Below, one piece after another: positions 8,786-37,779 of a DNA stretch of 40,578 nucleotides; the first letter of the stretch is position 1; each line of letters starts with the position of its first letter. Source of the stretch: an uncultured Candidatus Saccharibacteria bacterium (lineage in GTDB: Bacteria > Patescibacteriota > Minisyncoccia > Phycocordibacterales > PALSA-1337); contig CAZKSQ010000001.1 in NCBI GenBank assembly GCA_964555555.1, positions 1 to 40,578 on the forward strand, given 5' to 3'. A program made the position numbers and the translations under genes. The notes below the pieces were generated by a model that did no database searches, had not been told where the DNA came from, and saw only the letters and a list, made by a program, of their open reading frames with translations.

Positions 8786-8803
8786 TGTTTGTCTTGGCAC
8801 GCT

Positions 8804-13498: not shown

Positions 13499-13570
13499 GC
13501 TCCTATAGTTTAATGGATAGAACGCGGGCCTCCGAAGCTCGCGATGCAGGTTCGATTCCTGCTGGGAGCA
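13499..13570 (+). tRNA. tRNA-Arg (anticodon CCG)
   Basis: Acceptor GCTCCTA/TGGGAGC. Anticodon stem CGGGC/GCTCG with loop CTCCGAA. T arm GCAGG-TTCGATT-CCTGC. Discriminator A. Confidence 0.9.
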
Positions 13571-13661
13571 CACTCAAGGTCGATGCGGAGAAGTGGCTAA
13601 ACTGAGCCATGTCACGTATCTGGCAACAGTCAAAAGTTGGTTCGATTCTCGCGGAGGTTAT

Positions 13662-14981
13662 TTATTCGAGAACTAATTTTTTGTCTTTCAGAAAAATCTT
13701 GCTTTTGATACAAGAAAGTACTTCACGTTTCTGTAACATCGTTCCATGTTGCAGCATATGCTTCGCAAATATCTTGATACTGATGTCCTTCTGCTTTTTC
13801 GCTTGGGAGAGATCAACCCCGAGTACTCCAGTTTGGAATAACGAATATCTCGCGACCTCCTCCTCAAGTTTTTGTTTCAATTCGCTTTTGTCTAGACTCA
13901 TTTTGTCGATAACTGGCAGCATCTCTGATATGAGAATATCTTCCTTAACCGATTCATTCGGACAGTCTCGATTTTTCACTTTGGTACAACGGTAGTAAAC
14001 ATGAGCATTGAAGCCCCCATCCTTCAATTCCTTGATTTTTTCTTCTGCCGTTATGCCGGATTCACAATAGGCACAATGAAGCATTCTCGTAAATACAAAT
14101 TCACGACCATACGCTTTCTTTTTCTCAACCTTTATTTTCTCCTGTACTGCATCAAATAACTCTTTGGTGATAATTGGAGCGTGTTTGCCTGTATACCATT
14201 CTCCGGTACCTTCGGGATATTCAAAAACTCCGTAATAAAATGTCATGCGTAGAATTCTATAGATGTTACCAAGAGTGACTTCTTTATCATTTTTGTTTCT
14301 GAATCTTGTCTCTTTTAACCATCGATATATTTTCCTGCCAGAATAATTCTCATATGCCACTTTCTCGAATATCTGTTTTATGACCGGTGCCCGTAATGGA
14401 TCAACAATGACCTCACATTTTCTATCAGTCCTTTTTTCATTCAAATAGCCTGTCGGTGCTATGGACGGTCTGAGACCCATTGCTGCTCTTGTTCTTAAAC
14501 CTCGTTTTACGTTGACGACCTTATTATCATTCTCTAGCTTCGCCTGACTCCCGAGAATCATCAGCATGAATTTGTCATTTGGCGTATTCATGAATTTTTG
14601 ACCGTACGTCCGTATTTCAAGGAGCTTCTTTTGATCCATGAGATCTACGATTCGTCCGAGGTCGCCAGCATTACGGGCGATACGATCCGGTGCCCATGTC
14701 AGGATGCCGTTAAATTTTCCTTGCTTTAGCTCCTCAACAATCTCATTGAAGACCGGACGCATACCAGCCTCTTTGGCTGAATGCGATTCTTTTTTCATTG
14801 TCACAACTTCCAGATTATCGGCAGTTGCTATTTTCTCCATTTCCTTTATCTGGGAGTCGATGGAGAGCACCTGCTTATCTTCTTGTTCTGTACTTTTTCT
14901 CGCGTAAAGGCAGTAGGTTAGCTTTACGGGGACTACTACTTTGGCCGCAGTGCCCACAGGCGCTTGTATTGCATATGTCAT
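13662..14981 (-). CDS. Large serine recombinase (resolvase catalytic domain, recombinase domain, zinc ribbon)
   Basis: N-terminus CLYARKSTEQEDKQVLSIDSQ carries the catalytic Ser context, followed by TWAPDRIARN. A later Cys cluster reads CAYCES...YYRCTKVKNRDC. Start is ATG at 14981 (MTYAIQ...), but the ORF stays open to 15086. Confidence 0.85.
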   Translation of the reverse strand: MTYAIQAPVGTAAKVVVPVKLTYCLYARKSTEQEDKQVLSIDSQIKEMEKIATADNLEVVTMKKESHSAKEAGMRPVFNEIVEELKQGKFNGILTWAPDRIARNAGDLGRIVDLMDQKKLLEIRTYGQKFMNTPNDKFMLMILGSQAKLENDNKVVNVKRGLRTRAAMGLRPSIAPTGYLNEKRTDRKCEVIVDPLRAPVIKQIFEKVAYENYSGRKIYRWLKETRFRNKNDKEVTLGNIYRILRMTFYYGVFEYPEGTGEWYTGKHAPIITKELFDAVQEKIKVEKKKAYGREFVFTRMLHCAYCESGITAEEKIKELKDGGFNAHVYYRCTKVKNRDCPNESVKEDILISEMLPVIDKMSLDKSELKQKLEEEVARYSLFQTGVLGVDLSQAKKQKDISIKIFAKHMLQHGTMLQKREVLSCIKSKIFLKDKKLVLE

Positions 14982-15353
14982 ATACCTAAGGGATGACGCA
15001 ACCCCTCCGAGGAGTCCAGGAGGGGTGGAGTTGATAACTTTTAACCTAAAACTTAAACAAATTGACGACATTTGATCGGTGGACAACTAAAATGACTATC
15101 ACACAACATTATGATATTGTACTTACACAACTGAATATGTGCCTAAACCTGCGAAAGCAGGCATGGCAAATAGTCCGGTAAAGATTAGAAAACCCATCAT
15201 GTGGTTCTTGTCTTTACCGGCCATATCAGGAAACTGGTATGGGGAGCTTTGGCTCTCACCCATGTGGTGGGCTTTCTCATGCCACTATTATATGGGTAAA
15301 AGAGGTATAATTTGTTTATTAGAATTATTAAAGGTCAGTTATTATAAAATAAA

Positions 15354-17078
15354 ATGAAAAAATATATTGCGTCCATAGTGATTCCACTGACAATAATGTC
15401 ATTGGCGATTGTATTTTTTGCGTCTACGCCGGAGGTACATGCGCAAGTTAGTTGTCCGGCCGGATATACCTGCACGCCTATCTCCTCCGGCTTTAATTGC
15501 CCAAGTGGTTTTGTTTGTCAGCCGACATTCTTACCATCACCATCTCCAACGCCGACTGCTTGTTATACATTTTCGCGTAATCTTGGGATTGGGGCAACGG
15601 GTGACGATGTGGTTAGGTTGATAAATATTCTATCGAGTGAGGGAGTTCTACCTTTCCGAGCCAGTACATATAACGGTGGTTATGACGAATCAATAGCTTC
15701 GGCAGTTTCTGCTTTCCAGCAGAAGTATGCTTCTCAGATTTTAACTCCAAGCGGTTTAACAAGTGGAACGGGATATGTAGGAAAGGCAACGAGAGCCAAA
15801 TTGAATCAAATGTGTGCTACTCCGATGAATAGCACTGGAGATGTGTCTACATCAAACAATCAGAATACTGCTTATATATCAAGCGTTGGTTCACCTGCTA
15901 ATCCGGCTAGCTCTTTTTATCCAGGTGACAGGGTAACTATTGTTGGGTCTGGTTTCCCACAAAATAGTACTGTAGAACTCGATCAAGTTGGAACAGTCAG
16001 TCATACGATCATAAGTGCTTTAGCAAACGCAAGTGGCCAAGATCAAAATGTAACATTTATGGCACCAACAAATCTGTACCCGACCAGTTACAGATTATAT
16101 TTGATCAGCTCTCCGAACGGTGGTTCACAAATTAGTAACGCAGTCTATGTGACAGTGATGGCAAAGGGTTCGTCAAATAATACTCCCAATCTTGCGGTTT
16201 CTTGCTCCGGCACACCGTTTCCTTCTGGAGTACCCGGTGCCTCATGGTCAGCACAGGCAAATGGTTCTAATCCTCCCTACCAATACTCATGGAGCGTTTA
16301 CAACGATGTTTCGAGCTATGGTGAAGGCAGTACCCAATCCTCCGCTTTTATGGTTAATTACCAATCTGGTGGAACCAAGCAAGCAGTGGTAAGGGTCACA
16401 GATGCCTCTGGCATGTCAATTTCATCAACATGTTCTGTAACTGTAGGAAGCAACACGACTAATTCAAATCAGCCGTACATAACCTCAGTAAACCCGACGT
16501 ATGCGACAGCCAACTCCGTAGTCTCTGTTTATGGAACTAATTTAACAGGCGCAACTGAAGTTGATCTCGCAAACACTAGTGGTCAAATCTTCGGAACCAT
16601 AAATAATAGTGTTCAAAACAATATCACTGTTTCAGCAGGCGGATCGCCCTTGCAGTTCGTTGTGTCTCCGGTCATGGCGTACAATGTAAATAATACGACG
16701 CAATTGCGCGTCGTAACTCCTTCTGGAGCAAGTAACTACTATCGATTTGGAATTATTACACCGAATTCAAGTCAACCGAATATAACAAATATTTCACCGT
16801 CTCAAGGCACTGTTAATTCTACAGTTACGGTCTACGGTTCAAATCTGAACGGTGCTACAGAAGTTGACTTCTACAACTCAAGTAATCAGTTAATGGGCAG
16901 TATAAACAATAGTGTGCAAAATAATATAACTGTATCATCTAGCGGATCACCTTTGCAGTTTGTATTAAGTGGGGCATTTGCGGCTAACGTCACTGGTGCT
17001 TTACAGGTTCGTGTAGTTACGCCATCCGGCACGAGTAACTCGTTGCCGTTCACAATCACTGCGCCGAATTCCTATTAA
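15354..17078 (+). CDS. Secreted multidomain protein: Cys-rich N-terminus, PG_binding_1-like domain, PKD-like domain, two tandem IPT/TIG-like repeats
   Basis: Signal peptide MKKYIASIVIPLTIMSLAIVFFASTPEVHA|Q. LGIGATGDDVVRL...SAVSAFQQKY...GKATRAKL resembles a peptidoglycan-binding domain. PYQYSWSV...VVRVTDASG is PKD-like. Two 101-aa repeats end in RVVTPSG.SN. Confidence 0.75.
   Translation: MKKYIASIVIPLTIMSLAIVFFASTPEVHAQVSCPAGYTCTPISSGFNCPSGFVCQPTFLPSPSPTPTACYTFSRNLGIGATGDDVVRLINILSSEGVLPFRASTYNGGYDESIASAVSAFQQKYASQILTPSGLTSGTGYVGKATRAKLNQMCATPMNSTGDVSTSNNQNTAYISSVGSPANPASSFYPGDRVTIVGSGFPQNSTVELDQVGTVSHTIISALANASGQDQNVTFMAPTNLYPTSYRLYLISSPNGGSQISNAVYVTVMAKGSSNNTPNLAVSCSGTPFPSGVPGASWSAQANGSNPPYQYSWSVYNDVSSYGEGSTQSSAFMVNYQSGGTKQAVVRVTDASGMSISSTCSVTVGSNTTNSNQPYITSVNPTYATANSVVSVYGTNLTGATEVDLANTSGQIFGTINNSVQNNITVSAGGSPLQFVVSPVMAYNVNNTTQLRVVTPSGASNYYRFGIITPNSSQPNITNISPSQGTVNSTVTVYGSNLNGATEVDFYNSSNQLMGSINNSVQNNITVSSSGSPLQFVLSGAFAANVTGALQVRVVTPSGTSNSLPFTITAPNSY
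16467..17066 (+). repeat. Tandem duplication of about 303 nt encoding two IPT/TIG-like repeats
   Basis: Compare PYITSVNP...VSVYGTNLTGATEVDL...INNSVQNNITVSAGGSPLQFV...LRVVTPSGASN with PNITNISP...VTVYGSNLNGATEVDF...INNSVQNNITVSSSGSPLQFV...VRVVTPSGTSN. Confidence 0.65.
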
Positions 17079-17144
17079 ATATGAATTAGTTAGTTAACTG
17101 CTTATCTTCGCACTAGTGTGACCGCTAGGCATTATCTTCACAAT

Positions 17145-18410
17145 ATGAAAAATTTGCAAAAAGGTTTTATTGTCCCATTATTAATTGGCATTATAATTAT
17201 AGTGGTATTACTGATTAGTGGTGGCGCTTATATTTATCAGATTAAGAAAACGGTACAGTCAGAATCTCAAAATACCCAAACACAAATATCGAATCATACG
17301 ATGACGATTAGCGATATAAATATCAGCACAAAAGCAGATATTAAATCAGCATCACCAAAAACTGTTGTGGTCAATCAGGAACTTAGTGTTACTGGTATGG
17401 AAAAATATACTGATTCAGTATTCGGCTACTCCTTTTGGTATCCGTCTTCTTGGGTAGTCAATGAAAATACCAATGTAAATTTAGGAAATATCTACACAGA
17501 TGGTGTCATAACAAAAGAAACAACGATTGCTTCACCGCGATATCCTCGTGATGGCATAGCAATAGATGAGTTCTATTCAAACAACAAAAGCATTACTGAT
17601 AACTCAGTCTGTGGTCCTGCGGACGGATGCCCATCATCTGTACGTTATTACTTTGACAGCAATGCACATACTTGGATGAAAGATTCAAATATGGGCTATG
17701 GACAAGGTCAGTATTCGCTATCCAACATTATGACTGTCGCAACAAACGTATCTACTAATTCTATGGGCGGTCTTCATATTCTTAATGGCAATGCTCGATT
17801 CGGTGATGATGTAATTGTCCCATTGAGTGCCAGCAATTTTCTCATTGTCAGAAATATGAGTGCTGGAACAAATAAGGTCTTTTATCTGGCCAACACGATT
17901 GTTGCTCTTGATCCGGCTGTTGCTACACCACTATCACTATCGCATCAAATTGATGCCATTAGAGCCGAGAAGAATGAGTACAATTTCTCTGCGACTTCTT
18001 GGTCGACGTATAATTTCGGTAATAATAAAATTGATTATCCGAGTGACCTCACTATTCAAAATAGTCCAGGAGGTTGGAATGGAGATTCACCGATCTTCTC
18101 ATTCCCAAGTTCTTACCTTGTCGGATCCAATCTATATGAAGCCAAAATTAATATTATGAGCAGTGTTGGAAATGATCCACCGACAGGAACACAGGTTAAT
18201 ATCAACGGCACAAATTGGACAATGAGTGATTTGCAGAGTTGCAGCGATAGAACGGGTAATTGCAATCGGGTCATAATTTACGGAATATATGGGGCTGGAA
18301 ATACATCGTGGAATTTAAGTCTAATGGCTTCGGATAAGAATAGTCTGAATAGTTTGGCTGCTCAAAATATAATATCAATCTTTACGAAGATGGTCGGTAC
18401 TTATATATAA
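17145..18410 (+). CDS. Hypothetical membrane-anchored/secreted protein
   Basis: ATG at 17145 gives MKNLQKGFIVPLLIGIIIIVVLLISGGAYIY, a signal anchor. The extracytoplasmic part is about 390 aa and Asn/Ser/Thr-rich. No recognised motif. Confidence 0.65.
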   Translation: MKNLQKGFIVPLLIGIIIIVVLLISGGAYIYQIKKTVQSESQNTQTQISNHTMTISDINISTKADIKSASPKTVVVNQELSVTGMEKYTDSVFGYSFWYPSSWVVNENTNVNLGNIYTDGVITKETTIASPRYPRDGIAIDEFYSNNKSITDNSVCGPADGCPSSVRYYFDSNAHTWMKDSNMGYGQGQYSLSNIMTVATNVSTNSMGGLHILNGNARFGDDVIVPLSASNFLIVRNMSAGTNKVFYLANTIVALDPAVATPLSLSHQIDAIRAEKNEYNFSATSWSTYNFGNNKIDYPSDLTIQNSPGGWNGDSPIFSFPSSYLVGSNLYEAKINIMSSVGNDPPTGTQVNINGTNWTMSDLQSCSDRTGNCNRVIIYGIYGAGNTSWNLSLMASDKNSLNSLAAQNIISIFTKMVGTYI

Positions 18411-18465
18411 ATGAGTTAAATATAGATGATAGGTTTGTTTCAGAATTAATATAGGTATAACTAAT

Positions 18466-21400
18466 ATGCTTTTACTAAAATCGAGAAAATATATTGGTAT
18501 ATTAACTCCATTCGTAATCGTTTTATTTTTTGTATTTATCTTTGCAAATTCAGTTCTGTCTGCATCGGGCACCACAGTAAATTTGAGTTCGGATATTGAT
18601 ATCTCTAGATCGGGATTAATATCATCGGTTCCTATAAAACAACTAAATTCGAGTGATAATCCAAAGAATGCATCATCAGCCATCGTTCTAAACCGATATA
18701 TTGTCGAACTTTCAGAACAGCCGGTTTCAGTGACTTATGCCGAAATAGAATCGACAAGACCTGCTCCCAGACCTTCTCCCGGACCAAGATCGATGTCAAT
18801 TGATCAAGATACACAGGACGCATTAAATAATCAAAAATCAAAAGTCATCAATCAACAAAAGTCGTTCTTTGCGAATTTACCTTTGTCTGTTAAGAATAAA
18901 AACTCTGCTGTCATTTCTTCTATATCTTCTGGGGACGGACTGAAATCATTTGATTCAGTGATTAACGCAGTTGTTCTCAGTATGAGTTCATCCGAAGCAG
19001 GTGTGGTCAAAAGACTTGCTTCGGTCAAAAATATCGAGCCAGTAAAATCTGTTCAAACAGACTTGATGGATTCAGTTCCTCTAATACATGCTCCTGATGT
19101 TTGGGGTGGAAATTACTCGGGGGGATCTAGTGACGATCCGATAGCAGGTAAAGGCATAAGAATTGCTATTATCGATACTGGTGTGGACTATAAACATCCT
19201 GATCTCGGTGGTTGTTTGGGACCGGACTGTAAGGTGTTTGGGGGTTACGATTTTGTAAATAAAGATAATGATCCGATGGATGATATGGGTCATGGCACGC
19301 ATGTTGCCGACATCTCAGCTGGTAATGGAACTCCGAAGGGCGTAGCTCCGGATGCAACGATTTATGCTTATAAGGTTTTGGATAAAAATGGACGTGGCAC
19401 GACAGACAATATCCTTGCCGGTATAGAAAGGACAATAGATCCGAACCAAGACGGTAATCTTTCGGAACATCTTGATGTGGCTAATATGAGCCTCGGTGGA
19501 TCAGGCGATCCAGACGATTTAATGTCGCAGGCAGTTGACAATGCTGTAAAAGCCGGAGTTGTCTTCGTGGTTGCGGCAGGAAATGCTGGGCCGAGTGCGA
19601 GCACAGTTCTGTCTCCTGGAACTGCAAGAAATGCAATTACAGTGGCAGCAACTGACAAGCATGACGTCATGGCTTCTTTCAGCTCAAGGGGTCCGGTCGT
19701 ATGGACAAGAAATGATGGTACAACTGGTTATTTAGATAAGCCAGATGTTGCCGCTCCAGGCGTAGATATTTGTGCAGCAAGATTGGATACATTTTCTGGA
19801 GGAAATACAAACTGTAACAATGATTCAAATCATATCGCTATATCTGGTACCTCTATGGCAACTCCACATGTCGCAGGGGAGGTTGCACTTTTATTACAAA
19901 TACATCCAGATTGGTCTCCAGCAGAAGTTAAGGCAGCTGTGAAAAATTCTACTGTTAATCAATCTTCTTGTTTGATCGGTTCCGTATTATGTAGCTCTAA
20001 TAAATATAACAAGTATGATGCAGGGACGGGAAGAATAGATGCGAAAAAACTTGCAGAATCATCAAGGCTTCCAATAGCTCAAATTGATCCCGCGGGTGAT
20101 GTCCGTGGAGTTATAAATTTCACAGGCTCTGCTTATTCTCAGAGGAGTAATATCAAATATTCATTGTCATATGGAATAGGTGACAATCCAAATTCTTTTA
20201 CAGACATAACATCGACAGATCAGCCTGTAAAAAATAATGTTTTATATGCGAATTTCGATACAACAAGTTTAAGTGACGGAAAATATACTGTTCGACTCAC
20301 TGTAACCGATGATGACGGTAATATAAGTGAAGATAGTCAGGTAATGGAAGTAAATGATGCTGAAATTACTTCTGTGGGAAATAATTTAAATTATGTGAAT
20401 GGGGGTACCTATCAAATTCATGGCAAGATTTGGCTAAGAGGCGTATCGAGCTTAAAGGTTTATGCGGATTCTACAAACGGTCCCGCCCTATGTTCAGTAG
20501 ATTATACTCAGAGTGACAGTTTGTGCTCCGCTGGTTTCGGAAACTTATCAGACGGTATTCATCAGCTTTTTCTAAGTGTTCAGATGCCTGGTGGAAGCTG
20601 GAAAACAGGTTTAGGTTTTAAGATCGCCGTTGTAAAAGAAATGTTGGACGGCTGGCCTAAAGAAATCAATTCATTGCCACGAGGTACGCAGTCTACTATA
20701 CAATTTTCTGATAATGAAAATCCCACATTAGTTGTTCCGACATGGGGAGATTGTGTAGTTGATACCTCACAGTGCGGAATGCCAGGACTAAATTTATATC
20801 AAAGCAATGGTTCTTTCAGTCAGTTCAAACTTAGCGACGGATCACAAATGCCGTTTACCCCTGGTGACAATCTAGCCTTACTTAAAAATGATTCTGGAAA
20901 AAAGTATTTAGTAATGCTTAATGATTGCTCATCTCCAAATCCCCCTGAAAATTGGAATTGTGGTCCGATGATAAATAGAGTTGTTGATAAGAGTGGAAAT
21001 ATTTTAGGTTCATGGTTTGAATCGGGGTCGATTACGACGCAACCACCCGCAACAGTTATTGATAATAATGGTAAACCCGAAATCTACACACTAGGTTTGG
21101 ATCTATTCTCTAAAAAGATATGGATAACTGGCCACGATAGTAAGGGAGAAGCCTTAAATAATTTTCCTATAGTATTGCCGCAAGGGGATGGACCTGAAAT
21201 TATGTTTTCAACACACATAGGTCTGTTGAAAAATGGATATCAAAGTACTCTTGCGGCAATAGCGGGGAATTTTACAAATGATTCTGGATATATGAAAGAT
21301 TTCAAGGTGTATTTCTACTTATATTCCAAAGACGGACAGTTGATATCAAAGACTAATTTATTTGATGGCACAGGAAGATCATCTTTTCAACCAACTATAC

Positions 21401-23766: not shown

Positions 23767-23897
23767 TTCTTTATAATAAACACTTTCTTTAATGAATTGT
23801 AAAATCAATTTCCACTTCCATATATTGTTACCCAAATGTTTTATACGCGACAAAATAATGTTAAAATTGTAGCAGGCTTCTTTAAATCGATAATGTT

Positions 23898-26381: not shown

Positions 26382-27148
26382 AGATGAATTTTTCAAGCGT
26401 AAACTGGTCAAAATTTTTTTTGGTTCAACTATTTGCTTTTCTGATTGCGGGCTACGCCTTTGTATATAACATTTCTACATCTTTTCTATTTAATCAATAT
26501 ATTGATTCTGATGATTTATATTTTCTATTTGCACCTAGAGGTGTTGCCTGGCTCCATTATCCCTTTGTCACACTTATCGTTTTTATAATCATTTCCTTTT
26601 TATTATCTATGATAATAAATCGAGAAACAAGAAAAGCTGGTTATACTATCGGATGGTCGTTTACGGTATTGGGTCTCATGATTCTATTTCTCGTAAATAT
26701 GGGGGATCACTCTGATACTGCCCAGTTTGTCTTCTTTAGTATGGTCGGCCAGACTAGTGTTTTTGTTCTGTTACCTTTGCTTGTAGTACTGCCGATAGTA
26801 TTTTTTATCAGCGAAAAGTTGAAGGTAAATGAGATCGGAGTTGTTTTTGTTCTTGCCGTTATAGCACTGGCAATAAATATTGCATACATCAATACTTGCG
26901 GCTTTGGAAACAATGCAAAATGTGAATTACGGCAGCGGATTATCAAATTTGACGCCTCTGCATGTGAAGTTCCGGGATTGGCCACTTTTGAGAAAAATAA
27001 TTGCTATACCCTGATAGCAGCATATTCTGGAGATACAAACTTGTGCTCAAGTGTGGTTACATATGACAAACATAGCGGATTTACATGGCCAAAAGAGGAT
27101 TGTCTGAATAGAAAGAAATTTGATGACAGACTTCTTTACCATTTCTAG
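26378..27148 (+). CDS. Polytopic membrane protein with a Cys-rich C-terminal extracytoplasmic domain
   Basis: ATG at 26378 overlaps the upstream TGA (ATGA coupling). About 5-6 TM helices, then a tail of about 85 aa with 6 Cys. No recognised family. Confidence 0.65.
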   Translation: MKMNFSSVNWSKFFLVQLFAFLIAGYAFVYNISTSFLFNQYIDSDDLYFLFAPRGVAWLHYPFVTLIVFIIISFLLSMIINRETRKAGYTIGWSFTVLGLMILFLVNMGDHSDTAQFVFFSMVGQTSVFVLLPLLVVLPIVFFISEKLKVNEIGVVFVLAVIALAINIAYINTCGFGNNAKCELRQRIIKFDASACEVPGLATFEKNNCYTLIAAYSGDTNLCSSVVTYDKHSGFTWPKEDCLNRKKFDDRLLYHF

Positions 27149-27204
27149 TTTTCTTGTTTTACATCACCTCATTTGATAATGTACAAAAAGAAAGGAGATA
27201 CGAT

Positions 27205-27417
27205 ATGCAAGTGAAAATCGGCTCTGGAATTGCAAACAAGGATCCGGATAATCGCGACTTTACTGTGACACTCATTCCGGAAACAGCAGAGGAAAATGAA
27301 GCACTGGAGATTATGAGATCTTTTTCCAGTATATCAAAGACCTTCCACGGCTTCTTGCGTTCTGCCTATGAGGTTAGTGTGCACGGAGTTGGTGTTACCG
27401 TATCCTTGTTCCCGTAA
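27205..27417 (+). CDS. Small hypothetical protein (70 aa)
   Basis: ATG at 27205 is preceded by AAAGGAG at 27190-27196 with 8-nt spacing, and followed by a terminator. No homology recognised. Confidence 0.5.
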   Translation: MQVKIGSGIANKDPDNRDFTVTLIPETAEENEALEIMRSFSSISKTFHGFLRSAYEVSVHGVGVTVSLFP

Positions 27418-27423
27418 GACTGT

Positions 27424-27452
27424 AGAGAGTATCCAGCTGGGTACTCTCTTTT
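27424..27452. terminator. Bidirectional terminator hairpin between the two convergent island operons
   Basis: AGAGAGTA-(10-nt loop)-TACTCTCT followed by TTTT. It lies between the stop at 27417 (+) and the stop at 27460 (-). Confidence 0.6.
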
Positions 27453-27459
27453 CATATAA

Positions 27460-29295
27460 TTAAAACTCTGCTCCGAAGATTTCCTTAAATTTTGTCGTAT
27501 GTTCGGTAACAGTTTTTTCATTCTGCTCTATTGCGTCCAAATCTATAATGAGATCATGCTGAAATCTCAGCTCCTTTCGGCTGAACATTATTTCGGACTT
27601 ACTCTTTTTGCTCTTCTCATGAGTATTTATCGCTACTTGTATGGCTTCATTATTTTGTTCAATATGTTCCTTGATAATTTTCAATCTCTCCGTTACGTGT
27701 TCAGCCATATCTACGTCATATATTTTTGAGATTTTATCCAAAACGCTTTTAAAGGCTAGAAGTTGGGAATAGCTGTTAATAAGATCATCTCGTCTTGCCA
27801 TAAAAGCGACCCCCAATGCCGCATCTTTGAACTTTAAAACTTCCTTACTATCCTCTACGATTTCCTCGAAAAAAGCGTTTCCTCTTGTAAGAGCAGAAAT
27901 TTTTGAAACAGTCATGCCAAACATACTGAATATATCCGCCTCACCCTCATCATTCATGCTGCAGACCAAAAGCTCCTGATCAAGGTGTTCGCTTTTGTGA
28001 TCGGGGTCATTTTCGTCATAAACCAGACCCAAATTTGGATCATATCTGTCTACTTGTTCCTTGAATTTTATGACAAAATCGTAATCTTCAGTAAAAGCGC
28101 ACAAGCTTTCGCCGCTGATAACACTTCCTTCGAATGGCTCAAACGCGACTTTTTCTTCAATTTCGCCTTTTTCTGTTATTTCAATGCCAATATTTTCTAA
28201 TACTTTTCTGGCTGTTTCCAGTTCGCCGTTATACAGGCCTTTGCTGTAAAGCATATCTTTTCTGGTTTCTTCTTCAGTTCGCTCGCGCAACACAAGCTCA
28301 CCAGAAATGACATGACCTTGTAGAATATTTCTGGCCTCGACTTTCGTCGAAAGCCATCTGTCTAACAGCTCCGAGGAATTACTTACTGAAAGCGGCCGAT
28401 AATCATTAAGGATTCCTGCTTCTATTCCTATACGGAGACCTTCCTTGAGCATTTCCTCAACTGATATTTTGTGTTCCGCGGCGTATGACACAACTGATGC
28501 AGTCACATCATTGCAGGTGACGCTGTCTTCGTCGTCACATTCCTGATTTTTAGATAACGGTTTGCCGTTAATTTTAATACCCTTACTCCTCAAAAAGTAT
28601 TTAGCGACCTCGACCAAAGGGATGCAGGCAAAATAATGAAAAAGCTGGTATTCCTTGGCGAATTTATTATAGCTTTTTTCTGCTACGAGTTCCGCCAGTC
28701 TTTCTTTGGCTGTGTCCGAGAGTTCAGATTTTCCGTTGTATAGATTTGCCAAGATTTCTTCTTGATCAAGATATTGGTGGTCAGTTTCAATATCGGGGTA
28801 GAGTTCATTCATTTTCTCTTTGTCTTCTGAGCTAAGCATCTGAAATGCGAGGTTATATACGGCATGTTCTAAGTCAACACCTTCTCGTATTTTTACTGCT
28901 CTTTGCTTAGTTGCAATCTCTGTTGCTTCTTCTACAGTCACTTTCTTTATTTGCTTCAAGGTATTAATGCATCCCGCCATCTCTCTGTGACCGGGATACG
29001 AAAGGAGCTTCATGATTATCGGCAGTTGTGATAGGTACGCTATTTTTGCATCCTTGTAAATGAGTTCTGCTTCGATTTCCATCCTGCCGGAATATTTCCA
29101 ACCGTCGTTTAAACGATTCCATTCTCGCGCCTCAGTGCTATTGTTTGAGTGCCAATTTTCTAGAGCATCCTTGTCTGCCGGAGTAAGTATTTCTTTGCCA
29201 GTCTTCATTTTGTGCACGTCATTTTTTATGAGCAGCAGGAATCTCTCCCGTGCCGTAAGATTTCCTCGATGAAGCATATTTGTGAGATTTTGCAT
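27460..29295 (-). CDS. Hypothetical 611-aa acidic, predicted helical protein (no recognisable domain)
   Basis: Long uninterrupted ORF, last gene of the minus-strand island operon. Its start is 1 nt after the upstream stop. Glu/Asp/Lys-rich, with no TM segment and no catalytic motif I can name. Confidence 0.7.
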   Translation of the reverse strand: MQNLTNMLHRGNLTARERFLLLIKNDVHKMKTGKEILTPADKDALENWHSNNSTEAREWNRLNDGWKYSGRMEIEAELIYKDAKIAYLSQLPIIMKLLSYPGHREMAGCINTLKQIKKVTVEEATEIATKQRAVKIREGVDLEHAVYNLAFQMLSSEDKEKMNELYPDIETDHQYLDQEEILANLYNGKSELSDTAKERLAELVAEKSYNKFAKEYQLFHYFACIPLVEVAKYFLRSKGIKINGKPLSKNQECDDEDSVTCNDVTASVVSYAAEHKISVEEMLKEGLRIGIEAGILNDYRPLSVSNSSELLDRWLSTKVEARNILQGHVISGELVLRERTEEETRKDMLYSKGLYNGELETARKVLENIGIEITEKGEIEEKVAFEPFEGSVISGESLCAFTEDYDFVIKFKEQVDRYDPNLGLVYDENDPDHKSEHLDQELLVCSMNDEGEADIFSMFGMTVSKISALTRGNAFFEEIVEDSKEVLKFKDAALGVAFMARRDDLINSYSQLLAFKSVLDKISKIYDVDMAEHVTERLKIIKEHIEQNNEAIQVAINTHEKSKKSKSEIMFSRKELRFQHDLIIDLDAIEQNEKTVTEHTTKFKEIFGAEF

Positions 29296-29296
29296 G

Positions 29297-29515
29297 TTAT
29301 TTTCTCTTTTTTAGCGTCTGCTCAAGAAATTCAATCCTCTCTTTCAGGTTCGAGACCTCGATCATCTTTGAAAAGGCAAGAGCCAGGCGCGATACGACCA
29401 CGGCGCGTCGAAGCGTGGTTTTTCTTTGGGCTACTTCCTCCAGTGTTTCAGAGACGATTGTGGCCGCATCTTCTAAGCTCATGCATTTCTTTTCATTTTT
29501 GTCTGGTGTATTCAT
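29297..29515 (-). CDS. Small coiled-coil-like protein (72 aa)
   Basis: ATG at 29515 lies 11 nt after the upstream stop. The longer 29554 start would overlap the upstream gene. Contains a heptad-like LKERIEFLEQTLKKRK. Confidence 0.5.
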   Translation of the reverse strand: MNTPDKNEKKCMSLEDAATIVSETLEEVAQRKTTLRRAVVVSRLALAFSKMIEVSNLKERIEFLEQTLKKRK

Positions 29516-29526
29516 AATATTGTCGG

Positions 29527-29916
29527 TTACATTCCTTCCACGATCTCCATCCAAGCCCTCACTTCTGCCGCTTTGCCTGTTTTGGTTGCTTCGCGGTAGA
29601 GTGCGGATAGCACGTTTGGAGTCAATTTCTTAGCCCACGAGGAAATATTTTTCATGAGCCCGCCTGATTCCTCGATTTTCTTGTTCCACGCGGAAAGTGT
29701 TCCTAAATCTTTTATGCCGAATCGTTTGGCAAAATCGGTCTGATTCTTGATATCAAGAAGTGCCATAGCCATTTCGTCATCGATGCCAAGCTTCTCGATT
29801 ACATGTCTTGGCTGTCCGCGGAGAATCGAAGGCATTGATCGCCAAAGCACATAGGATTCGAATTCCTGCTTTTTGTATATGTTCAAGGATTCGCCATCTT
29901 TCGCATCGTTTTCCAT
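29527..29916 (-). CDS. Small phage/plasmid-type HTH DNA-binding protein (weak resemblance to terminase small subunit)
   Basis: 129 aa. NQTDFAKRFGIKDLGTLSAWNKK looks like an HTH, and the C-terminal ALYREATKTGKAAEVRAWMEIVEG resembles phage small HTH proteins. The resemblance is weak. Confidence 0.5.
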   Translation of the reverse strand: MENDAKDGESLNIYKKQEFESYVLWRSMPSILRGQPRHVIEKLGIDDEMAMALLDIKNQTDFAKRFGIKDLGTLSAWNKKIEESGGLMKNISSWAKKLTPNVLSALYREATKTGKAAEVRAWMEIVEGM

Positions 29917-29921
29917 ATGTT

Positions 29922-30689
29922 TTAAACATGCTGTATGAGTTCAGCTTTTCTATTTGTTAATTTCTCCCATCGCTCGACTATGGTGGAGCAGTACGATTCT
30001 TCATATTCGATGGCAAGGCATCTTCTACTCAATTGTTTGCAGGCAATGAGAGTTGATCCTGATCCGGCGAATGGGTCATAGACTATGTCTCCTGGCTTCG
30101 TACTGTGATATATGAGGCGACGCAGTAGTGCGGGCGGTTTCATGGTCGGGTGGAGCCTGCTTTTATTCGGCTTCGGGTAAAAGAGAGCGGTTTTGTCCTT
30201 ATTGCCGAAGTAAGGATGTGTGCCGTACCAGCCATAAAGTATGAGCTCATGTTGAGGGTGAAAGTCCTTACGCCCCATGACAAGGTGATTCTTTAGCCAG
30301 ATCAAAAGAGCTGATTTTGTGAAATTACTATCGTGCAGGGCGTTCAAAAGCTCTCGCAGTTTTGCGTCGCTATTGAATATGTAAAAAGCATTCTTCTCGT
30401 ACAAATGAGGTTTTATAACCCAAAGCCAATTCTTTGAAAAACTATAATAATCTGTTCCAATATTATCACCTTTGATGGGGATAAATTCTTTCCCGTTTAC
30501 TCCTTTGTGAATAGTTTGCAGGAATTCCTGTTTGTTTTCGACATACCCGACTCCATAGGGTGGATCGGTCAAAATAAGCGTCACCTTGTCATTTATGATT
30601 AATTTGTCGACATTTTCTTTCTTGGTTGCATCTCCTAGAAGGAGACGGTGATTGCCTAGCTTCCACATTTTAATTAATTTTTTGTGCAT
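29922..30689 (-). CDS. DNA methyltransferase, beta-class N6A/N4C (DPPY, then FxGSG)
   Basis: Contains LGNHRLLLGDAT, LILTDPPYGVGY, HPTMKPPALL and YDPFAGSGSTLIACKQL. Start is ATG at 30689 or 30668; the longest ORF runs to 30746. Confidence 0.85.
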   Translation of the reverse strand: MHKKLIKMWKLGNHRLLLGDATKKENVDKLIINDKVTLILTDPPYGVGYVENKQEFLQTIHKGVNGKEFIPIKGDNIGTDYYSFSKNWLWVIKPHLYEKNAFYIFNSDAKLRELLNALHDSNFTKSALLIWLKNHLVMGRKDFHPQHELILYGWYGTHPYFGNKDKTALFYPKPNKSRLHPTMKPPALLRRLIYHSTKPGDIVYDPFAGSGSTLIACKQLSRRCLAIEYEESYCSTIVERWEKLTNRKAELIQHV

Positions 30690-31932
30690 GGTCTCCGGTG
30701 AAATGCTCATAACGGCGAACGATGAGGTCGCAGAATGTCGGGTCAAGTTCGACTAAAAATGCCCGACGCTTCAGTTGCTCTGCGGCGATGAGTGTTGAAC
30801 CGCTACCGCCAAAGAGGTCGAGTATAATCTCACCCGGTGCGCTACAGCGTTTCATTGGCTTTTCGTTCAGTGTGATCGGTTTCTGGGTTGGATGTTCGTA
30901 GTCGGCAGTGTTGTCGCGCTTAACGAGCCATAGCTGGACGATTGACATAATGTCGTCATATGAGCCGATCGAATTTACCTCTTTGTTCAATACCTCGGAA
31001 AGATTCTTAACACTCGGGTTCAGTGCTGGACTGCCTCTCGTGCCATATACGCAAGGCTCGATAACTTTATTGAATGCCACCTGTGGTGTTGGATCAAAGT
31101 TATTTTTTACCCAGAAGCAAATACGACGGTTGACCATGCTATTTTTCTCATACAGGTTCTGTAGTAACCAGACATATTTTTCGTCACACCAATAGAAGAC
31201 ATGGACATTGGGATTGCTGGCGGCTAAAGCATTTCTTAGCGATTGTTCAATAAATGATTCATACTCCCTCGTGCCTTTATTGTCGTTCACCATATTATCC
31301 GGCGTATATTTGCCCTTGGTGCCAATACCTTTACGGTAGTCGAGGCCTATATTGTATGGAGGATCGCAGTAAATCATATCAGCCTTTTCTTTACCCATGA
31401 GCTTTGTGACAATGTTTGGATCCAGTGCGTCCCCACAAATGAGACGGTGTTTGCCAAGTTCATAGATATCGCCAACTTTCGTTTCCGGCGTGGTTATCTT
31501 CGCCAATTCTTGCGGAACGTTAAATCCATCATCAGAAATATCAAGCACATCGTCAAAGAAATTATTGAGATCATCCGGTGTAAAGCCGACATCAAGAAGC
31601 ATGTTTGTATCAAAAAGCTTCAGAAGCTCCTCATCCCAATTTCCCAGATTTTTGTTTAGCCGTAGGTTCAGCTCTTTTTCGCGCTCGATTTCCGGAATGT
31701 CGAGATATACTACGGGTACTTCAGTGAAGCCTAGCGTAGTCGCAACCTTAAAACGCAAGTGTCCACCGATTAAAATATTCTTTCTAGCAGGTGCACCATT
31801 AACGATGAGGGGATCGCATAGTCCGAAGCGCTTGATGCTCTCGGTCATGTCAGAGATAATTTTGTCGTCCCATTTTCTGGGATTGTAGGCGGTCGGCTTC
31901 AATTCTTTGATTTGTACTTGCTCTATTTTCAT
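30670..31932 (-). CDS. ParB-like nuclease domain fused to a beta-class DNA methyltransferase
   Basis: The N-terminus (IKELKPTAYNPRKW...SIKRFGLCDPLIVNG) is ParB/Srx-like. This is followed by GKHRLICGDA, IYCDPPYNIGLDY, HPTQKPITL and LDLFGGSGSTLIAAEQL. Confidence 0.85.
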   Translation of the reverse strand: MKIEQVQIKELKPTAYNPRKWDDKIISDMTESIKRFGLCDPLIVNGAPARKNILIGGHLRFKVATTLGFTEVPVVYLDIPEIEREKELNLRLNKNLGNWDEELLKLFDTNMLLDVGFTPDDLNNFFDDVLDISDDGFNVPQELAKITTPETKVGDIYELGKHRLICGDALDPNIVTKLMGKEKADMIYCDPPYNIGLDYRKGIGTKGKYTPDNMVNDNKGTREYESFIEQSLRNALAASNPNVHVFYWCDEKYVWLLQNLYEKNSMVNRRICFWVKNNFDPTPQVAFNKVIEPCVYGTRGSPALNPSVKNLSEVLNKEVNSIGSYDDIMSIVQLWLVKRDNTADYEHPTQKPITLNEKPMKRCSAPGEIILDLFGGSGSTLIAAEQLKRRAFLVELDPTFCDLIVRRYEHFTGDHAQKIN

Positions 31933-32001
31933 GATAGTTGTTTATGTATTACTGATAAGTGAAGTATAGTAACTATTTAAGGCAAAAAAATATGTTGATA
32001 A

Positions 32002-32544
32002 TCAAAATCCGCCGAGTTTTGGCACTTTCACGGCGAAAGAAAGACCAAGCTTTTTCAACTGGATTTTGGCCACATCAAGACTAACTTTGAAGATTTTTGC
32101 GATATCTTCGATATATACGGCTGGTGTTGTTTTGTATATCTCACGAATCACTACTTCTGGCATCAGAATATTGCCGGAAAACTCATCACAAAGCCTTTCA
32201 TCCCAAGTTTTGCTGTTTGCCGAACAGTAGACTGTCTTCGGTTGATTCGGGAACAAAACCATGTGTGCTAGTTCATGCCCGGCCGAAAAGCGCTGACGTT
32301 CGATGACCTCTCTCTCATTTATAGCAACGATCCATCCCGCATGCATGTCTTTTGTTGAAAAAGCTGACGTGCTTTCGGGGAAAGGAATATCTAATCTTTG
32401 GGCGATCTGGACATCACCGACGTATGACTCGATGATGTCGGTTATAGGGATAGGAATCTTAAATAGACCGCAGTCAGCGGCTTCCTTTAGGATTTCATTT
32501 ACTTTGTTATTGGCTTTGATCCGCCATTCGGGAGGAATTAACAT
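32002..32544 (-). CDS. ImmA/IrrE-family zinc metallopeptidase
   Basis: HELAHMVLF supplies the HExxH motif in a DUF955-like context. ATG at 32544 lies 7 nt after the XRE gene stop. This is the typical ImmR/ImmA pairing. Confidence 0.8.
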   Translation of the reverse strand: MLIPPEWRIKANNKVNEILKEAADCGLFKIPIPITDIIESYVGDVQIAQRLDIPFPESTSAFSTKDMHAGWIVAINEREVIERQRFSAGHELAHMVLFPNQPKTVYCSANSKTWDERLCDEFSGNILMPEVVIREIYKTTPAVYIEDIAKIFKVSLDVAKIQLKKLGLSFAVKVPKLGGF

Positions 32545-32551
32545 GGTAAGA

Positions 32552-32890
32552 TTAATTATTAAATTGTTTCTTGATAAGCTCAATGAAAGCTTCGACTGCC
32601 TTGCTCTGTGTATCGTCAAGATTATATTTAGCTCGAAGAAAGGTCGGGGTGCTTGCTTTGGCGATGTAGTCTTCTTGGGTTATACCTGCCTTAGTTAATA
32701 TTAGCTCGACAGGTTCTTTGAGGCCGTTAGCGATTTGTCGAAGTGTTCTAATTGACGGGGAATCTTCGGCGTACTCTCCCTGCTCCAATCGTGAAATATA
32801 TCCGCGGGTAAGCTTGGCATCCTGAGCGAGCTTTTCCTGCGTCATATTTTTATCCTCACGCAAAGACTTTATGACATCGTGCAGTTTCAT
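32552..32890 (-). CDS. XRE-family helix-turn-helix transcriptional regulator
   Basis: IKSLREDKNMTQEKLAQDAKLTRGYISRLEQGE is a canonical Cro/C1-type HTH. Confidence 0.85.
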   Translation of the reverse strand: MKLHDVIKSLREDKNMTQEKLAQDAKLTRGYISRLEQGEYAEDSPSIRTLRQIANGLKEPVELILTKAGITQEDYIAKASTPTFLRAKYNLDDTQSKAVEAFIELIKKQFNN

Positions 32891-33297
32891 AGCTTCAGTT
32901 CAACTTATACTTCTAATGCTTCGACTGCATGAAGTATACCAAGCATGGCTACAAGGTTACAATAGTGTACATCTGTGGATATTGTACTATAGCACTAAAT
33001 ATTATTCTTGTCTATTTATTTACGAAGCCCAAATACTGTCGACTTACCTAAATGAGAATAGTTAATATATCTTTATATTAGGCCATTATTTGGCAAAACG
33101 GACCATCAAACAAGTGCTTAGGATTTGGCTTTGTTTGGGTTTTGCACCATCATTAAAATGCCTGATTTGCTGAAATATGACCCCTATGCGGAGGGGTAAA
33201 GGTTCTACTTGATGTGATGCTCAGGAACCCTTACACTGCCTAACATCACTCCGTCCGAGACGCGGATGGAGCACAAAAACGAGTGCAGCGAGTTTTT

Positions 33298-33432
33298 GTG
33301 CTCCAAAGCGACGCGCCTTCGCGCGTTGCGCGCAGGAATCGAAAAGGTCGAACATATTTTTGAGGGGGCATCCTCCCTCAAAAATGTGAGACCTGTATAG
33401 GTCCTGTAAGGACAGATTCCTGCTGGGAGCAC
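33298..33432 (+). ncRNA. Structured element copy A (about 135 nt), ending in the tRNA-Arg(CCG) 3'-end duplicate
   Basis: Four helices: GTGCTCC/GGAGCAC (closing); hairpin 33308-33329; GCAGGAATC/GATTCCTGC (33332-40 / 33415-23); hairpin 33356-33385 with loop GGCATCCT. It is homologous to 36535-36670, with compensatory changes. Transcription is not demonstrated. Confidence 0.45.
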
Positions 33433-36428: not shown

Positions 36429-36501
36429 GGTGCCTATGGTGTAATGGTTAGCACTAGAGCTTGTGGAGCTTTCAGTTCGGGTTCGAATCCCGATAGGCAC
36501 C
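36429..36501 (+). tRNA. tRNA-His (anticodon GTG) with encoded G-1
   Basis: G-1 pairs with C73. Acceptor GTGCCTA/TAGGCAC. Anticodon loop TTGTGGA. T arm TCGGG-TTCGAAT-CCCGA. Confidence 0.9.
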
Positions 36502-36506
36502 CCGAT

Positions 36507-36532
36507 AAAAATCCGCGATAAGCGGATTTTTT
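36507..36532 (+). terminator. Terminator-like hairpin immediately after tRNA-His
   Basis: AAAAATCCGC-gataa-GCGGATTTTT followed by T. Confidence 0.55.
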
Positions 36533-36534
36533 GA

Positions 36535-36670
36535 GGGGTGCCTAAGCAAAGCGCCTGCGCGCTTTGCGGTCGGGATTCGAAGACCTTGAGCATATTTTCG
36601 GTGGGGCATCCTCCACCGAAAATGCGAAAGGTGTACAGAGTCTGTAAGACTCGAATCCCGATAGGCACCC
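36535..36670 (+). ncRNA. Structured element copy B (about 136 nt), ending in a 20-nt duplicate of the tRNA-His 3' end
   Basis: Helices: GGGTGCCTA/TAGGCACCC (closing); hairpin 36546-36567; CGGGATTCGA/TCGAATCCCG (36571-80 / 36651-60); hairpin 36594-36623 with loop GGCATCCT; small hairpin AGTC-TGTAA-GACT. Same architecture as 33298-33432. Confidence 0.45.
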
Positions 36671-36782
36671 ATTGATATCGCATTCCTGTAATAAAAAACA
36701 AAATGCGGCGGCTACTCTGGGAGAGTCATGCGTCGACATGATTTTTGGAGTGTATCGACAAAATTAAACAAAAAGAAAAATT

Positions 36783-36938
36783 ATGAATGACGACAAAGTT
36801 CAAAGAGCCGAAGAAAAAGCAGATAAGTCCGAAGCGAATGCAAAACAAGATCGGGCTGATAGTGACAAGGCAGTAGCAGTTGAATCAAAAGAAAAGGCCG
36901 AGGCTTCCCAAAAAGAAGCAGACAAAGCCAAATCTTAA
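36783..36938 (+). CDS. Possible small Lys/Glu/Ala-rich protein (51 aa)
   Basis: ATG..TAA ORF, below the ORF-track size cutoff: MNDDKVQRAEEKADKSEANAKQDRADSDKAVAVESKEKAEASQKEADKAKS. No clear RBS. The low-complexity sequence makes it uncertain. Confidence 0.3.
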   Translation: MNDDKVQRAEEKADKSEANAKQDRADSDKAVAVESKEKAEASQKEADKAKS

Positions 36939-37040
36939 GAACTCACTTTGAGGATTCTGCTTTAGAGCAACCCCTGCAATCTGAAATATGGTTACGGGGT
37001 TTCATTTCCATATAGTGAATCACAGGGTAGGGTAAAACGC

Positions 37041-37094
37041 AGGAATATAGATTGTTGCATCATCCATCCTCTCAAACTTCCTCTACGACAGCAC
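37041..37094. repeat. Dispersed repeat copy 1 (flanks the lipoprotein gene)
   Basis: GGAATATAGATTGTTGCATCATCCATCCTCTCAAACTTCCTCTACGACAGCAC resembles 37811-37875. Confidence 0.45.
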
Positions 37095-37167
37095 TCTAGC
37101 AGGAATAAAATTAAAATATCTTTTATTTAGATTGTAAAACCAGTTCGGTTTTTAGTATAATTGCGTT

Positions 37168-37779
37168 ATGAAAATCTCTTATAAAATCTATGTGGCGTTT
37201 TCGCTCATTTTAGTCATTCTAATATCGCTTTCACTTTCCAGTTGCGTTGTGCATGCAACTGCTCCAGCACCAGCGAGCGCTTCTTGTCCATTTCATGCTA
37301 CTGTTATTTCATATAAGCAAACTTTTCACCAAGCTGCCGGTGCTATATATCGTGGAAACACTAAGATAGATGTTCCTGAATTTGATATATATGATGTTGT
37401 TTTGAAAATAAACAGCTCGACTTCAAAGGATAATTTATGTCCCACAAAGGGTGAAGAGATAACATCGTCACTTATTGCCACGAATCCAGATTCGTATGTA
37501 CAGCCCACGATGACAGGAAAGGATATATTAGTAAACGGAATCATAATAGAAGGTACACTTCTGGCTATGGATTCTTCTAACATTGGGTTGAGCAAGACTT
37601 TTACTTTAAATCAAATAAGTATTGTCACTAAAGTTCTAAACTCTGCCACCAACACCCCAATAATCATATCAACATCGACATCGCTTATGGCTACCTCAAC
37701 GTCCGATGTGCAAGTTATTTCACAGCCAATACCAAAAAGATTCGTTTGGTGGAATCCGTTTACGTGGTTTGGTTACTGA
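37168..37779 (+). CDS. Putative lipoprotein/secreted protein
   Basis: Signal peptide with the lipobox-like ISLSLSSC. 203 aa, Ser/Thr/Ile-rich. Confidence 0.6.
   Translation: MKISYKIYVAFSLILVILISLSLSSCVVHATAPAPASASCPFHATVISYKQTFHQAAGAIYRGNTKIDVPEFDIYDVVLKINSSTSKDNLCPTKGEEITSSLIATNPDSYVQPTMTGKDILVNGIIIEGTLLAMDSSNIGLSKTFTLNQISIVTKVLNSATNTPIIISTSTSLMATSTSDVQVISQPIPKRFVWWNPFTWFGY

Follow-up and report, generated by a model that had tools for sequence, protein, structure and literature searches.

A probable large serine recombinase island at the tRNA-Arg(CCG) gene of an uncultured Saccharibacteria bacterium, and a tRNA-linked structured element at its border

We analyzed a stretch of 40,578 nucleotides from an uncultured Candidatus Saccharibacteria bacterium (contig CAZKSQ010000001.1; hereafter, the window), in which a gene for a large serine recombinase (LSR) lies beside tRNA-Arg(CCG). 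We think it highly probable that positions 13572-33267, together with one copy of the 8-bp sequence GGAGCACA, are an integrative island from an LSR family that is widespread in Patescibacteria. A longer direct repeat, which copies 18 nt of the tRNA's 3' end, appears to belong not to the island but to a separate structured element that lies just beyond it, which we call X.

The tRNA-Arg(CCG) gene (13499-13571, plus strand) was identified by ARAGORN and scores 65.4 bits against Rfam's tRNA model. The gene is intact, and its 3' end would be the chromosomal attachment site (the B arm). The LSR gene (13662-14981, minus strand) encodes 439 amino acids from the ATG at 14981, and its 3' end faces the 3' end of the tRNA. 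The original prediction that this protein is an LSR holds: it contains the three domains of LSRs, as described by the Pfam families Resolvase (PF00239, 4.2e-22), Recombinase (PF07508, 4e-17), and Zn_ribbon_recom (PF13408). The match to PF13408 is marginal (25.4 bits, with a cut-off of 25.3), and a CxxC...C...C pattern is visible in the sequence. Reading the translation, we found that the catalytic motifs are retained: YARKSTEQ (Y-x-R-x-S-T-x-x-Q, which includes the nucleophilic serine) and DRIAR (D-R-x-x-R). The protein also matches the solved structure of the SPbeta integrase (PDB 9dxd, 1.5e-9). Its best match in NCBIfam is CcrB, at 126.5 bits versus a cut-off of 900, and it reaches 52 bits for CcrA versus a cut-off of 700. 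No tyrosine recombinase (PF00589) was found among the scanned open reading frames of the island.

Homologs of this LSR at 72-86% identity form over 100 protein clusters, and the clusters that are named are from Candidatus Paceibacterota or Taylorbacteria. More broadly, relatives are encoded in at least 577 of the species genomes in GTDB, nearly all of which are Patescibacteria.

To describe the sites that these recombinases occupy, we scanned 119 fetched LSR loci (numbered with an L below), and we restricted the counts of tRNAs to the loci with enough flanking sequence (87 downstream of the LSR gene and 105 upstream). A convergent tRNA, whose 3' end faces the LSR gene, is found within 1.8 kb downstream at 39 of the 87 loci. 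In contrast, a tRNA is found within 1.8 kb upstream at only 1 of the 105. The association with tRNAs is therefore a trait of the family and is not specific to the window. Also, at all 12 of the loci where the LSR has 77% or higher identity to that of the window, the motif AAyCAAGGyCGAyGCGGAGG begins directly after a tRNA that ends with (G/T)CAC. In the window, this conserved left-end motif (P') is ACTCAAGGTCGATGCGGAG (13572-13590, plus strand), and it starts at the first base past the tRNA. More distant subclades of the LSR have different motifs at the same place. Because the motif starts just past the tRNA, the DNA that derives from the element seems to begin exactly where the tRNA stops. The tRNAs at these 12 loci are of seven species: Arg-CCG, Arg-TCT, Arg-CCT, Lys-TTT, Glu-CTC, Gly-TCC, and Gly-CCC. 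That LSRs with 77-86% identity are found at at least seven species of tRNA may imply that they read a feature that is common to tRNA 3' ends (the T-loop and the ...CAC-A) and not a unique sequence.

The other end of the island is conserved as well. We identified homologs of it in L010 (via right-end pieces in the fetched loci), in L246, L247, and L257 (via a pattern scan of metagenomes), and in L009 (via blastn). Including the window's, these six right ends have in common TGACCCCTATGCGG...CTTAyrsTG...CTyCGTCCGAGACsCGrnTGG(A/G)GCAC. In the window, the conserved right end (the P arm) is at 33165-33267 on the plus strand (TGACCCCTATGCGGAGGGG ... CTTACACTG ... CACTCCGTCCGAGACGCGGAT). The homology (33165-33275) halts at GCAC|A, and the DNA beyond it is different in all six. 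The earlier suggestion that the island was inserted between the tRNA and a structured element agrees with this right end, which the island shares with five other LSR elements. L009 is a syntenic relative of the window and has its island at the orthologous tRNA-Leu/tRNA-Arg(CCG) site; that island is 9.3 kb and contains a LOOT RNA, a trypsin-like peptidase, and a ParB-methyltransferase. L010, L246, and L257 are minimal elements of a few kb, with little besides the LSR and subterminal repeats. The closest relatives thus vary in size from these minimal elements to the 9.3 kb of L009 and the 19.7 kb of the window's island.

Both of the conserved ends stop at the end of the tRNA or at GCAC|A, which indicates that the true junction repeat is probably just the 8 bp of GGAGCACA, at 13565-13572 (attL) and at 33268-33275 (attR, the likely right boundary of the island). 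The island would then be 19,703 bp (13565/13572 to 33268/33275) rather than the ~19.9 kb that was originally proposed. If we compare attL to attR in each element, the identity at the junction is GGAGCACA for the window (8 bp), GGGGCACA for L010 (8 bp), and only GCACAA for L009 (6 bp). Since the P arm of L009 ends with GGGGCAC, whereas its tRNA ends with GGAGCAC, the exchange must fall within GCACA. A core of 5-8 bp is of the size expected after exchange by a serine integrase, so the apparent conflict between a long repeat and the mechanism of serine integrases, which had been raised as an oddity of this locus, goes away. Tandem accretion, which had been offered as an alternative, is not required here.

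The 18-nt repeat needs another explanation. As predicted, GATTCCTGCTGGGAGCAC has exactly two exact copies in the window, at 13554-13571 and at 33415-33432. There is no additional match with up to 3 mismatches, and two or more matches were seen in 0 of 100 shuffled sequences. The first copy (plus strand) covers the 3' half of the T-loop, the 3' strand of the T-stem, the 3' strand of the acceptor stem, the discriminator, and one more base. If these copies were the real cores, then the island would be 13572-33432, including X; the exchange would occur in the T-loop, with the element supplying a replacement 3' end for the tRNA, in the style of tyrosine integrases; and in the empty site, we would expect tRNA-Arg to be joined directly to TGTGTTTAGATATG. 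The repeat is indeed exact and far from chance, and at all three loci with such a long repeat (the window, L076, and L023), the repeat begins at the same position of the T-loop, C56/G57, which is the center of the T-arm dyad. However, the homology to the five other right ends halts at 33275, which is 157 bp before the end of the second copy, and a long repeat is missing altogether from two related elements, L010 and L009. In L076 and L023, the conserved end of the element also sits before the X-like element. X is found directly behind tRNAs that have no island or recombinase (tRNA-His in the window and 8 other loci). And the P' motif, which starts just past the tRNA, lies at too great a distance from the T-loop for a serine integrase half-site. 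We consider this reading to be largely refuted and very improbable: judging from these comparisons, the 18-nt repeat does not seem to be the recombination core.

The second copy of the repeat is instead the 3' end (33415-33432) of a 158-nt element, X(Arg), which lies outside of the island (33275-33432, plus strand). It had been proposed that the repeat was part of a tRNA-linked element like the one at tRNA-His, and in fact, X(Arg) aligns with the 167 nt directly 3' of tRNA-His. This second element, X(His) (36504-36670, plus strand), ends with a 20-nt copy of the 3' end of tRNA-His (36651-36670 matches 36483-36502). The homology between the two elements begins exactly after GGAGCAC (Arg) or GGCACCC(C) (His). 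The degenerate third copy of the tRNA end, TGGAGCAC, is present at 33267-33274, and its proposed role as the marker of the inner junction fits with the homology of X starting right after GGAGCAC.

Among the sampled Patescibacteria loci with enough downstream sequence, X-like elements without an island are found behind 8 of 158 tRNAs (~5%). L076 and L023 are arranged like the window, with the LSR island between the tRNA and an X-like element. These three are the only related islands with long tRNA repeats, and each of the repeats belongs to the X-like element and not to the island. X is not present behind attR in L010 or L009. Its occurrence is thus sporadic, as it is also missing after tRNA-His in L262 (a syntenic relative) and, in L009, after tRNA-Arg(CCG). 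Finally, X(Arg) includes GATTCCTGC in one of its helices (P3, described below), and this sequence is found in the tRNA but not in the right end of the island. This suggests that X formed beside the tRNA and that the island arrived later, between the two. X thus appears to be both independent of the island and older than it.

Most of the 12 copies of X share an architecture. In X(Arg), a hairpin that resembles a two-way terminator (33275-33297) is followed by helix P1 (33298-33304 with 33426-33432), in which the reverse complement of the acceptor's 3' strand is paired with a direct copy of that strand. P2 (33308-33329) is a hairpin of 9 bp, often with a CUGC loop. P3 (33332-33340 with 33415-33423) pairs the reverse complement of the 3' half of the T-arm with a direct copy of it. 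P4 (33345-33393) is a long hairpin, and P5 (33401-33413) is a hairpin of 4-6 bp that has a UGUAA loop in five of the copies. Each X therefore remakes two helices from the 3' half of its own tRNA. The z-scores for folding are -8.8 for X(Arg) and -10.9 for X(His), and when we ran RNAalifold on eight of the copies, 19 of the 26 pairs had compensatory changes. The tRNA-sense strand folds better in 10 of the 12 copies, which is a weak hint that X may be transcribed from that strand.

X has no match in Rfam at the gathering threshold or at E values up to 5. We considered whether X might be a remnant of a group II intron, a site like attC of integrons, a guide of the IS200/IS605 or IS110 type, a tRNA mimic similar to YrlA or tmRNA, or a mini-element with just the attP of a tyrosine integrase. 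We found no supporting evidence for any of these, and Rfam returned nothing. In the rtT region of tyrT from E. coli, the last ~19 nt of the tRNA recur a short distance downstream. X is similar in that a copy of the tRNA's 3' end lies shortly downstream of the gene. Unlike rtT, X is a single unit of ~135-170 nt with a conserved fold of multiple helices, two of which are made of direct and inverted copies of the tRNA's 3' half, and it occurs behind many different tRNAs in Patescibacteria. L019 (13328-13470) has a repeat of a different and simpler kind than X: behind tRNA-Ser(GCT) lies a plain 40-nt duplication, in tandem, of the last 26 nt of this tRNA. In the literature, of which our coverage is incomplete, we found no description of X or of this lineage of Patescibacterial LSRs. 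X is the part of our findings that is most likely to be truly new.

The composition of the island is foreign. Its GC content is 0.409, as compared to 0.489 for the left flank and 0.470 for the right flank, and the tetranucleotide profiles change at the same points, so the AT-rich interior that had been noticed by eye is borne out by computation. Also, five tRNAs and the flanking genes are in the same order in L262, with ~1 kb at the site (from L19/tRNA-Leu to the Cob_adeno_trans gene) versus 21 kb in the window. Conserved synteny of 13.6-33.4 kb, which would have suggested that this is not an island, is therefore not seen in this relative, and the comparison to L262 gives indirect support for insertion.

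We also considered that there might have been no insertion, in which case this would be an ancestral AT-rich region, and the LSR would be a domesticated and vertically inherited protein that serves some other function, for example inversion or resolution. The LSR is unusually conserved across many genomes (up to 86% identity), and our searches for an empty site or a circle found none. On the other hand, nearly identical LSRs are found at seven species of tRNA with differing neighbors and cargo; both ends are discrete conserved blocks that stop at the end of the tRNA; the block is missing in the syntenic L262; and the composition is foreign. We give this explanation almost no credence.

Several observations do weigh against an integrative island with the junctions that we propose. 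The original prediction called for a search for the empty site and the circular junction, and in metagenome contigs, neither was found for this island. When the JGI metagenome contigs were scanned for exact copies of the start of X(Arg), there were 0 matches. Scanning metagenomes for the family's right-end pattern identified 19 stretches, which correspond to four true loci (L246, L247 and its duplicate L253, and L257); all of these are integrated (attR-type) junctions, and none is a circular junction. A search of IMG/VR for a 14-mer from the right end along with the P' motif gave chance matches only, and exact-protein look-ups of Cob_adeno_trans and L19 led to short contigs that stop before the site. 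This right-end junction was found in just one other sample, L006, where attR is occupied in the same way. The position of the crossover is based on three pairs of attL and attR. In the attP that we reconstructed, dyad symmetry does not exceed chance (the best center has 10 of 22 positions), and clear half-sites for a serine integrase cannot be pointed out. We could not demonstrate the imperfect inverted repeats that had been suggested for the two ends, as the best local inverted match between them is at the mean for shuffled sequences. Instead, ATGCGGAG is found in the same (direct) orientation near both ends, at 13583-13590 (within GGTCGATGCGGAG) and at 33185-33192 (within CCCCTATGCGGAGGGG). 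Both copies are kept in related elements. Last, no recombination directionality factor was recognized in the island. That the island is mobile today is something that we infer.

L006 is a contig of 1836 nt (ENA ERZ27245395, found via P0121) with the same attR, X, and Bax1-I junction as the window. It begins at the equivalent of position 33094, or ~170 nt inside the island's right end, which could reflect the breakage of the assembly at a variable island.

What the sequences show directly is the two junctions, the way in which these are conserved among elements, that X stands apart from the island, and that the island's composition is foreign. The mechanism that we infer is the usual chemistry of serine integrases at an unusual target. 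The only constant parts of the family would be the LSR gene, the left end of ~20 bp (P'), and the right end of ~110 bp (P). In a circular copy of the element, the two ends would be joined as attP (P-CACA-P'). The LSR would pair attP with the extreme 3' end of the tRNA, that is, the T-arm and the 3' strand of the acceptor, the discriminator, and the first bases of the trailer. A staggered exchange of 2 bp would then take place within GCACA, at the boundary between the discriminator and the trailer; both the catalysis by the LSR and the exact dinucleotide are predicted. The products would be an intact tRNA that is immediately followed by P' (attL), and P fused to the tRNA's former trailer (attR), with only 5-8 bp being duplicated. 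In the window, the former trailer would already have been X, with its own 18-nt copy of the 3' end of tRNA-Arg, and so it would be X, not the integrase, that yields the long direct repeat. Given an 8-bp core, the empty site would read ...GATTCCTGCTGGGAGCACAAAAACGAGTGCAGCG... and the circle would read ...CCGAGACGCGGATGGAGCACACTCAAGGTCGATGCGGAG....

The cargo comprises an operon of secreted proteases and adhesin-like proteins, led by a LOOT RNA, along with an XRE/ImmA pair and two DNA methyltransferases. The LOOT RNA (RF03000) is at 15140-15257 on the plus strand, between the start of the LSR gene and the first cargo gene, and it scores 84.1 bits (the gathering threshold is 46.4) across positions 1-121 of the 121 in the model. 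L009 has a LOOT RNA at the same position (9725-9844, minus strand, 90.6 bits), and both are transcribed away from the LSR. These are 2 of the 12 close loci; the other ten lack it, so the LSR is not generally accompanied by LOOT. It looks like a leader or small RNA of the cargo operon.

The original prediction's two convergent blocks of genes, without housekeeping genes, are as claimed. The plus-strand block encodes a secreted repeat protein with a weak peptidoglycan-binding-like segment (15354-17078); a protein with no family match in Pfam, PHROGs, or NCBIfam (17118-18410); a subtilase of 1,766 amino acids (18466-23766; Peptidase_S8, 4e-58) with FG-GAP/PKD-like repeats and a tail rich in Pro, Thr, and Ser; a protein of 827 amino acids with a weak M64-like match (23898-26381) and a Pro/Thr-rich tail in common with the subtilase; and another protein with no family match (26339-27148). 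The minus-strand block encodes an XRE-family helix-turn-helix regulator (32552-32890; HTH_3, 1e-12), a metallopeptidase of the ImmA/IrrE type (32002-32619; Peptidase_M78, 2e-14), a fusion of a ParB N-terminal domain and a DNA methyltransferase (30670-31932), an N6/N4 DNA methyltransferase (29922-30746; N6_N4_Mtase, 1.7e-31), and a protein of 611 amino acids with no match in the same three databases (27460-29295). The open reading frame at 29527-29916 is likewise unannotated. The two domains of the ParB-methyltransferase are also found together in one protein of L009. The statement that there are no capsid, portal, terminase, or conjugation genes stands too: scans with Pfam, PHROGs, and NCBIfam identified no housekeeping, capsid, portal, terminase, or conjugation (relaxase or type IV secretion) families, and several open reading frames had no match of any kind. 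Because there are no genes for transfer or for virions, moving from cell to cell would require outside help.

The island could also be a decayed prophage, or a satellite of a Patescibacteria phage, that uses this integrase family and whose virion genes were lost or are borrowed. The island has an XRE/ImmA pair and a ParB-methyltransferase, both of which are common in temperate phages. Furthermore, 33 viral contigs in IMG/VR encode relatives of the LSR (40-58% identity), the peptidoglycan-binding segment has one weak match to an endolysin-like PHROG (3.5e-5), and those several open reading frames without annotation leave room for phage genes. Nevertheless, no capsid, portal, terminase, tail, or replication family was found in any of the large open reading frames with the three databases, and the P' and P-arm motifs of this subgroup were not found in IMG/VR. 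Also, the closest relatives include elements of a few kb with little beyond the LSR (L010, L246, and L257), and the cargo is mostly secreted proteases and adhesin-like proteins. We consider a phage origin to be unlikely.

Some of the related loci have other features. In L010, the left-end motif occurs a second time, 3.4 kb from tRNA-Arg(TCT) and the first copy, and just after a diverged fragment of a tRNA 3' end, GGTTAGATTCCAAGCGAGCGCAC (14086-14134 on the minus strand, and 17517-17608); this looks like tandem or accreted elements at a single tRNA. L010 (9560-10040) also has several imperfect repeats of ~70 nt between the start of the LSR gene and the right arm, as do L246 and L257 upstream of the right arm (TGTAAATGAGACAG...TGTCTCATCTGTAACATTTACA and GTGAATGGCA...GCCATTCATGCCATTTACA). 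These repeats, which are not evident in the window, may be sites for a regulator or an accessory factor. In L004 (and also L005 and L011), a related LSR island at tRNA-Glu has a gene-free stretch of 3.3 kb (~900-3950) in which a hairpin repeat of 44-46 nt (TAATTGTCAG-variable stem-TTTCGA-stem-CTGACC..CAGT) occurs ~30 times at irregular spacings of 86-350 nt; this repeat has no match in Rfam at the gathering threshold. In L001 (and also L002, L003, and L017), two LSR genes lie in tandem beside tRNA-Lys (7754-10499), and they are 86% and 47% identical to the window's. The same island encodes a diversity-generating retroelement (bAvd and reverse transcriptase) and a Pif1 helicase. Within the window, past tRNA-His and its X, the region at 36671-39600 has a GC content of 0.381 and island-like tetranucleotides, and it contains a Fic/DOC protein (38537-39439) and small unknown open reading frames. 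This region is possibly a second block of foreign DNA, for which the window contains no integrase.

Among known systems, it is the staphylococcal cassette chromosomes (SCC and SCCmec, with CcrAB or CcrC) that this LSR family resembles most closely. In both, the LSR is the sole mobility gene, the cargo is variable, and there are no genes for transfer or for virions. In both, a conserved housekeeping gene is entered at its extreme 3' end and is not inactivated. Tandem or composite arrays are another similarity (as in L010), and CcrB is the best-scoring named family for our LSR. However, the target is tRNA-Arg(CCG) and not rlmH/orfX, the hosts are Patescibacteria, there is one recombinase instead of a CcrA/CcrB pair (L001 does have two in tandem), and the score for CcrB is far below the cut-off. 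Because neither the recombinase's score nor the target gene fits, we do not consider the island to be an SCC.

The island is also similar to the prophages that use serine integrases (phiC31, Bxb1, A118/LI, SPbeta with SprA, and TP901-1): the enzyme has three domains, the short identity at the junction fits with a 2-bp crossover, and the integrase gene is beside one end of the element. In contrast to this lineage, which uses the 3' ends of tRNAs, the characterized prophages of this kind enter protein-coding genes or intergenic sites. Other differences are that proteins with 77-86% identity are found at several species of tRNA, that there are no phage genes, and that attP lacks detectable dyad symmetry.

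Textbook practice links islands at tRNA genes to tyrosine integrases. Like the tRNA or tmRNA islands of tyrosine integrases (as identified by Islander or TIGER), the window has a preserved tRNA as a landmark, foreign cargo, and a fragment of the tRNA's 3' end on the far side. But there is no tyrosine recombinase, and the tRNA fragment was not made by the island; it is 157 bp outside of the conserved end and belongs to X. Another parallel is the tycheposons of Prochlorococcus, of which 27 of 937 carry an LSR in place of the tyrosine recombinase (bioRxiv 10.1101/2020.12.28.424599). Tycheposons, too, are islands with cargo that lie at the tRNA genes of a streamlined genome, but the lineages are unrelated, and we saw no replication module in the window's island. 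According to a 2026 survey, the cores of tyrosine integrases are longer than those of serine integrases or transposases, and RNA loci are the preferred targets of tyrosine integrases (PMC13626063). Software for finding islands has relied on the rule that islands at tRNAs have tyrosine integrases (PMC4383910), so islands of serine integrases at tRNAs, with 5-8 bp of identity at their junctions, could be missed or given the wrong boundaries.

Taking the two parts together, we tentatively propose, as a possibility that we would not yet bet on, that this is a lineage of LSRs that is specialized for tRNAs and has multiple targets, and that X is a new structured RNA or miniature mobile element that is linked to tRNAs. 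The window illustrates that a long direct repeat derived from a tRNA can be a false boundary for an island. The source of the repeat here seems to be an independent and strongly folded element that mimics the acceptor and T arms of the tRNA, and it deserves study in its own right. The recombinases appear to be a large and well-conserved lineage of serine integrases at the 3' ends of tRNAs in Patescibacteria, with defined end sequences. These ends are concrete candidates for attP and attB sites for genetic tools in Patescibacteria, a group that does not currently have any, and if our interpretation is correct, then these organisms would have naturally multi-target integrases on which such tools might be built.

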